Positions 30,342 through 30,529 of a stretch of 64,000 nt of DNA are shown in pieces; position 1 is the stretch's first letter, and each line of letters starts with the position of its first letter. A program made the translations under genes and the position numbers. This stretch comes from Escherichia coli (GTDB lineage: Bacteria > Pseudomonadota > Gammaproteobacteria > Enterobacterales > Enterobacteriaceae), in NCBI RefSeq assembly GCF_013315695.1, contig NZ_CP054353.1. One strand, written 5' to 3'. The notes under the pieces were generated by a model. The model had not been told where the DNA came from and did not search any database. It saw only the letters and a program-made list of their open reading frames with translations.

Positions 30342-30529
30342 TGGAGCACCTCAAAAACACCATCATACACTAAATCAGTAAGTTGGCAGCATCACCAGCC
30401 CTTTCTTTAGCTTATTTTCAGAAAAAGATACACAAAATTTATATTTGGCATTCTCTTGTCTCTCCGACAGACTGACCGAATTGTTATCAATGTTAACAAA
30501 ACAAGAACAATTGGTTATAAGGAGAGAGT

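Follow-up and report, generated by a model that had tools for sequence, protein, structure and literature searches.

What remains of a regulated promoter when an insertion sequence comes to stand almost against the operon? In the window, by which we mean the whole 64,000-nucleotide stretch of Escherichia coli DNA analysed here (contig NZ_CP054353.1 of assembly GCF_013315695.1), a complete IS1 adjoins the ssu operon, and exactly 133 bp of native DNA separate its end from the ssuE ATG (Table 1). This much the first-pass annotation had seen, and it is correct; the spacing is a structural fact and not a statistical one. It had gone on to propose that distal IHF or activator sites may be lost and ssu regulation altered. 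The IHF-type distal sites are gone, and we suggest that the Cbl activator site is most probably still there; we put the probability that Cbl-dependent sulfate-starvation induction of ssuEADCB is preserved at about 0.7. The main casualty of the deletion described below is the elf fimbrial operon, not ssu.

Table 1. Features of the IS1-ssuE locus, in window coordinates or, where so stated, relative to the ssuE ATG. The last rows compare IS1 events in other E. coli genomes by the bp kept upstream of the ssuE ATG at verified end points.
Feature	Position	Strand	Remarks
elfD 3' remnant (fimbrial chaperone)	29076-29628	-	~149 nt missing at the 5' end, signal peptide included
Complete IS1 (IS1A-like), 768 bp	29629-30396	-	locus reading, comparison with reference loci and MSB1_4I, RefSeq annotation
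IS1 IRR	29629-29651		
insB	29644-30147	-	167-aa ORF
insA	30066-30341	-	91-aa ORF
Promoter-like site CTGCCA-16-TATGAT in IRL, at the insA promoter position	30362-30389	-	reads into IS1, divergent from ssuE
IHF-consensus-like site AATCAGTAAGTTG within IRL	30373-30385	+	one mismatch
IS1 IRL	30374-30396		
Novel joint, IS1 IRL end fused to position -133 of ssuE	30396/30397		end point of the 999-bp deletion
Retained ssuE control region, 133 bp	30397-30529	+	matches the whole part homologous to elf-less Escherichia and other Enterobacteriaceae
Putative Cbl recognition element, CTTTCTTTAGC plus LTTR-type T-N11-A box (T30408...A30420)	30401-30422	+	conserved block 1
Conserved block 1, TTAT.C..TTTT..GC	-123 to -108 from ATG		
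Conserved block 2, ATAAATCATTTAG in other genera	-94 to -82 from ATG; 30436-30448	+	degenerate in E. coli; abuts and overlaps the -35
Putative ssu core promoter	30445-30473	+	-35 TTGGCA (30445-30450), 17-bp spacer, -10 CAGACT (30468-30473)
Conserved block 3, CTCTG.CA.A.T	-68 to -57 from ATG		
Conserved block 4, AATTGTTATCAATGTTA	-51 to -35 from ATG		
Conserved block 5, AAAAGC.AACA.TT.GTTATAAGGAG	-31 to -6 from ATG		
Two conserved leader blocks, AATTGTTATCAATGTTA and AACAATTGGTTATAAGGAG	30479-30524	+	Shine-Dalgarno at 30519-30524
ssuE ATG	30530	+	191 aa; SsuE 97.4% identical to K-12 SsuE
ssuE, ssuA, ssuD, ssuC, ssuB	30530-34766	+	all full length, without internal stops; proteins 97-99% identical to K-12
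PSJ-36 (verified), LR-25 and EC09 (identical match pattern)	81 bp kept		simple insertion
HCP4S3_I4	120 bp kept		deletion into elfD
Strain 582	129 bp kept		deletion toward elfC
EC23HZZ201	130 bp kept		simple insertion
PEC403	131 bp kept		simple insertion
EC5 (verified) and 45 genomes by the same match pattern	132 bp kept		simple insertion, duplication GCCCTTTCT
The window	133 bp kept		adjacent deletion
22F46	154 bp kept		simple insertion
TUM1881	227 bp kept		deletion into elfC
WP5-S17-ESBL-10	303 bp kept		elfA deleted
Res13 pig isolates	410 bp kept		inside elfA

The element belongs to the IS1 family by its 768-bp length, its imperfect inverted repeats of ~23 bp and its insA/insB' arrangement with a -1 frameshift motif. 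The terminal inverted repeats are GGTAATGACTCCAACTTATTGAT and GGTGATGCTGCCAACTTACTGAT, the imperfect inverted repeats of IS1 reading GGTAATGACTCC... and GGTGATGCTGCC..., and the A6C frameshift motif TTAAAAAAC is visible as its complement near 30085. The window copy is 99.9% identical to annotated IS1A copies, and the identical 768 bp in NZ_LR898874.1 are annotated in RefSeq as 'IS1-like element IS1A family transposase' with a 'programmed frameshift'. Both insA and insB point away from ssuE, and the IRL end is turned to it. A large-repeat search of the window found neither a second IS1 copy nor any other large repeat. IS1 produces target duplications of 8-9 bp (PMC12428005), and here there is none: the left flank ends in ...CGTACACCC and the right flank begins with AGCCCTTTC..., as is to be expected after an adjacent deletion.

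Such a deletion can be traced in a sister genome. Over 24.6 kb left of IS1, the window and E. coli MSB1_4I agree at every position (100% identity), and four other genomes are near-identical there; those four have no IS1 at the elfD-ssuE locus. MSB1_4I carries an IS1 in elfD that matches the window copy at 768 of 768 positions, has the same left junction and is flanked on both sides by the 9-bp duplication CGTACACCC, and its elfA and 355-bp elfA-ssuE spacer are whole. The left 1200 bp and the IS1 show no differences between the two genomes. Of the MSB1_4I sequence, the window lacks the 999 bp that adjoin the IRL end, identity resumes at -133, and the window is thus MSB1_4I minus 999 bp, with zero further differences in the compared regions. 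Against the intact locus of E. coli MS 21-1, the left flank stops inside elfD and the right flank resumes 991 bp further on. The parental junction is therefore kept, and the loss begins precisely at the opposite end of an IS that is itself intact, which is the classic signature of an IS1-promoted adjacent deletion; by this comparison, the 133-bp interval reads as the remnant of one that took 999 bp at the IRL end. A simple insertion of IS1 at -133 is ruled out by the absent target duplication and the missing 991-999 bp. The first-pass annotation had seen neither the missing duplication, nor the absence of about 1 kb of chromosome next to IS1, nor the inactivation of elf.

We suggest that the event took place in two steps. 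First, as the sister genome shows, IS1 entered elfD and made the 9-bp duplication CGTACACCC, a state that this genome still has. The IRL end of that IS1 would then have struck the same DNA molecule 999 bp further along, at -133, a step for which the structure is plain and the mechanism is our reading of it. With the interval would have gone the 9 bp of the duplication, the start of elfD, the whole elfA gene and its promoter and, of the elfA-ssuE spacer, the 222 bp farthest from ssuE; one IS1 would have been left, without a target duplication. Adjacent deletions of this kind by IS1 have reportedly been seen at gal. Intramolecular attack by one IS end removes the interval and keeps one IS without duplication, and adjacent deletions with this outcome are documented for IS activity (PMC11708052). 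Like the deletions promoted by IS1 at gal and by IS150 in the Lenski lines (PMC11708052), the one in the window has one parental junction, a loss that starts at the other IS end, an intact IS, no target duplication and an available simple-insertion parent. Unlike those of laboratory lineages, it is found in a pair of natural isolates, it is short (999 bp), and its end site has been hit independently in other E. coli lineages.

The same structure could have arisen if a second IS1 had inserted in direct orientation at -133 and IS1-by-IS1 homologous recombination had then removed the interval together with one copy. Recombination between IS copies likewise leaves one IS without target duplication (PMC11708052), -129 to -133 is a proven IS1 target with five independent end points within 5 bp, and the one-step transposase route and the two-step recombination route yield indistinguishable final sequences. 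Yet recombination needs two events against one, and no genome with two IS1 at the locus was found among the near-identical relatives examined, so that we regard this route as unlikely, if worth keeping in view. Whether by one-step adjacent deletion, which we prefer, or by recombination, the event is an ordinary strain-specific IS1 rearrangement and changes nothing in the understanding of IS1 or of Cbl regulation. The exact IS1/-133 joint had 0 matches in 5426 complete E. coli genomes and none in the metagenome contigs searched; the deletion is therefore private to the strain and recent, and MSB1_4I and the window form a clean pair of natural isolates that show the state before and after an IS1 adjacent deletion. 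The intact ssu reading frames are uninformative on expression: with flanks 100% identical to those of the sister genome, there has been too little time for decay.

Lost with the deletion are 149 nt at the start of elfD, the DNA between elfD and elfA, elfA as a whole and, of the 355-bp elfA-ssuE spacer, 222 bp. What is left of elfD is recognised from the left flank, which maps to elfD of MS 21-1 (locus L001, up to 4009), and from the chaperone fragment of MSB1_4I annotated as 'missing N-terminus'; the 188-aa ORF listed at 29076-29642 takes a spurious TTG start from inside IS1. Since the major subunit and the promoter are gone and the chaperone has lost its signal peptide, the Elf/Ycb fimbrial operon is predicted to be dead. 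In practical terms, the strain would have lost the Elf (YcbQ) laminin-binding fimbriae and would probably have kept sulfonate utilisation. The remaining genes elfC, elfG, ycbU, ycbV and ycbF (23610-29051, minus strand) are still intact ORFs, now promoterless save for possible read-through from insAB of IS1, which points into them.

For ssu, the question is what stood in the missing 222 bp. We scanned the 355-bp elfA-ssuE spacer with the IHF core consensus WATCAANNNNTTR. Its only matches lie in the deleted part, one of them perfect (-191 to -179) and two with one mismatch (-242 to -222), and the retained 133 bp have none; CysB sites, for their part, are not recognisable from sequence. Thus the proposal that distal IHF sites may be lost stands for the IHF-consensus matches, and it is only its activator half that finds no support, as set out below. 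The deleted DNA is 75% A+T, the retained part 67% and IS1 47%. The spacer has been listed both as a 'promoter island' that binds RNA polymerase and as a constitutive RpoD site, and the predicted ssuE-direction promoter ATGACA-17-AATAAT maps to the deleted part (PMC3661553, PMC3946193). Compared with K-12, the window has the same operon with the same motifs and, save for 4 substitutions, the same 133 bp, and in place of the K-12-type upstream 222 bp of spacer stands the IRL end of IS1; relative to MS 21-1 and MSB1_4I, the 133 bp are 100% identical.

In exchange for the lost IHF-like sites and the AT-rich 'promoter island', the operon would have received an IRL end with an IHF-like site of its own and a divergent insA promoter. 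The IHF-like site AATCAGTAAGTTG stands ~100 bp upstream of the predicted ssu start, where native IHF-like sites used to stand, and IHF is known to bind IS1 ends. The CTGCCA and TATGAT hexamers of the divergent site are the pair listed for insA4 (PMC3946193). We expect that this replacement would at most modulate the level of ssu expression. Another outcome would be a fusion promoter made of a -35 TTGGCA in IRL (30383-30388), a 17-bp spacer and TTTAGC (30406-30411), which would read constitutively, and independently of Cbl, into ssuE. IS1 with an outward -35 is known to make fusion promoters (PMC9330008, Table 1), and the pair scores 8/12. The candidate -10 TTTAGC, however, lacks both A2 and T6, the positions that matter most, a promoter scan requiring both gave nothing at the joint, and a hairpin with a T-rich tract overlaps it, so that a read-in promoter seems very improbable. 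The hairpin itself (30382-30399, plus strand) is terminator-like, with a 5-bp stem that includes 3 G-C pairs, and spans the IS1/native joint; it is probably a chance occurrence, the 400-bp scan giving 2 such sites against 0.3 expected.

Our preferred reading, that induction through Cbl is preserved, takes support from ssuE in other species. We took 80 ssuE loci from other species and aligned 47 orthologous upstream regions. In Citrobacter, Klebsiella, Enterobacter, Leclercia, Kluyvera and others, ssuE and pyrD are divergent neighbours without an intervening elf operon, and the same elf-less arrangement occurs in two Escherichia genomes. Consistent with this, an orthologue table for K. pneumoniae sets b0937 beside b0945 (PMC3415461, supplement). 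Five conserved blocks were found in the 47 upstream regions, all of them between -123 and -6 of the ATG and hence inside the retained 133 bp. Homology between E. coli and the elf-less Escherichia sets in at GCCCTTTCTTTAG (-132), and beyond about -133 the other genera have the pyrD PurR box (GCAA.CGTTT), with its promoter and leader, directly adjoining. Since the pyrD leader and PurR box adjoin the ssuE control region elsewhere (loci L003-L049), the whole elf operon is an E. coli-specific insertion. Its ssuE-side edge lies at -132/-133, and the IS1 joint falls within 1-2 bp of the ancient boundary between elf-island and ancestral ssu DNA. We infer that the retained 133 bp make up the ancestral ssuE control region in full; moreover, as the pyrD box and promoter lie directly beyond -132 in the elf-less organisms, a functional ssu control region should need nothing further upstream. 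The PyrD leader of the window itself lies at 23494-23567 on the minus strand (Rfam RF02373, 97.9 bits); it is the only Rfam match in the window, and no known RNA element was found in 30397-30529.

These alignments, together with the description of Cbl-dependent promoters as carrying one Cbl site each (review, PMC11495319), speak against the suggestion of the first-pass annotation that an activator site was lost. The E. coli segment from -112 to -70 has diverged from the other genera, and this weakens the transfer of the conservation argument to E. coli. Only the Cbl site just upstream of the -35 is reportedly needed for full ssu expression, and the three CysB sites and the IHF sites are said to be without influence on it.

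Within the 133 bp, our placement of promoter and activator site rests on conservation. In the -10-like CAnACT of block 3, A2 and T6 are kept in 42 of 46 orthologous regions, and a preceding TGn in 39 of 46. On this basis the ssu transcript would start near 30480 and have a leader of ~50 nt; the TSS supplement of PMC3415461 lists no ssuE start site. Other genera have an extended -10 (TGnCAnACT), and E. coli, where 30462-30473 reads CGACAGACT, is without the TG. The E. coli -35 is better than that of the other genera, being TTGGCA in the window allele and TTGGAA in K-12, and the change from one to the other is one of the 4 substitutions. The putative Cbl element has its T-N11-A box centred at about -66 from the predicted start, the first native base, 30397, being at about -83. 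The usual position of a LysR-type recognition site is around -66. The element also resembles the dyad upstream of tauA, CTTTCCTTAGCC-N-GCTAAG, there followed by ATAAAATCAT. The best local alignment of the two (window 30401-30418) was not significant, 78 of 300 and 21 of 300 shuffles scoring as high; the expected motif aligned no better than in shuffles, and we dropped the similarity as evidence for a Cbl motif.

The margin is small. The IS1 end lies 4-10 bp from the conserved motif, and protein footprints usually reach past the recognition sequence. It could be argued, in a strong form of the concern raised by the first-pass annotation, that the deletion cripples ssu induction, because the Cbl-protected region, or another element that is required, extends beyond -133 or because the true E. 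coli promoter is the upstream hexamer pair given below; in the second case the activator site would lie mostly in the deleted DNA, and the operon would now be poorly inducible or silent. The nearness of CTTTCTTTAGC, only 4 bp from the IS1 end, would fit this, as would the loss of all IHF-consensus sites of the spacer and the removal of the 'promoter island' with its constitutive RpoD site (PMC3661553, PMC3946193). So would the best sigma-70 hexamer match of the E. coli interval, which is another pair, TTCAGA-17-TATATT (30417-30445, 9/12); were it the one in use, a Cbl site ahead of its -35 would have been half deleted. The TATATT hexamer is not conserved, however, with A2 and T6 kept in 0 of 45 orthologues. 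DNA beyond -132 belongs to the elf island and has no counterpart in genera with ssu beside pyrD, and so an ancestral Cbl site cannot have been there. The CysB and IHF sites are said, in a 1999 abstract, to be dispensable. Moreover, IS1 stands at -129 to -132 in 46 genomes of one clone and in several unrelated strains, which indicates that separation from the distal DNA is tolerated and is not proof of function. Taking these points together, we think it rather improbable that ssu induction is crippled.

Junction queries found IS1 near ssuE in 14 genomes in the window's orientation and in 62 in the opposite one, and the verified end points (Table 1) include five independent events within 5 bp (-129 to -133), the window's and four more, in several E. 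coli lineages and in both orientations. Judged from these junctions, -129 to -133 of ssuE is a narrow IS1 hot spot. The -132 event, in which the transposase reads toward ssuE, is common to 46 mostly clinical genomes, many of them named 'ST361' or '361'. In the EC5/EC20/'ST361' clone, EC23HZZ201, PEC403 and strain 582, the IS1 target is 1-4 bp from that of the window and the same ssu control region is kept. All these copies are in the orientation opposite to the window's, with the transposase toward ssuE, and three of the four events are simple insertions with 8-9-bp duplications and an intact elfA, the exception being the strain 582 deletion. At least five lineages have thus been hit independently in a narrow target that coincides with the junction between the E. 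coli-specific elf DNA and the ancestral ssu control region. In PSJ-36 the IS1 (positions 1833-2600 of locus L086; LR-25 and EC09 likewise) has the duplication CATTTTCT; it lies between the predicted -35 and -10, so that in these three strains the operon should be cut off from its activator site.

Insertions of IS1 and IS5 upstream of bglGFB offer a parallel, in that an IS enters AT-rich DNA ahead of a promoter that is silenced or depends on an activator, and distal nucleoid-protein sites are removed or displaced. At bglGFB, however, the insertion activates a silent operon, whereas at ssuE no activation is needed or seen and the expected effect on ssu is neutral. It is conceivable, and in our view a long shot, that IS1 at the edge of the elf insertion measurably rewires the locus and is selected in gut or clinical lineages instead of being neutral, its target there being a site-specific hot spot. 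If so, IS1 at -129 to -133, as in the window and in the large clone with the -132 event, would uncouple ssu from an AT-rich spacer bound by H-NS and IHF, or would silence elf. Existing strains make the minimal natural ssu promoter directly testable.

The window is collinear overall with K-12 963,854-1,028,400, apart from the region missing at IS1. From elfG to pepN (24000-36000) it is only 90.6-95.8% identical to K-12, with flanks at ~98%, and the ssuE 5' region has at least 99% identity in only 14 of 5413 genomes, 5233 being at 90-95%. The elf-ssu segment accordingly presents itself as a rare divergent haplotype, in which the differences would be mostly synonymous, given the protein identities of 97-99%. 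In MS 21-1 (L001), elfC (831-3432) and ssuB (8603-9380) are annotated as frameshifted pseudogenes; unlike these, elfC (866 aa) and ssuB (255 aa) of the window are full length. Two short K-12 stretches are also missing from the window, ~141 bp of the ycbX-rlmL spacer at ~20585-20590 and ~154 bp of the gloC-aspC spacer at ~43525-43544.
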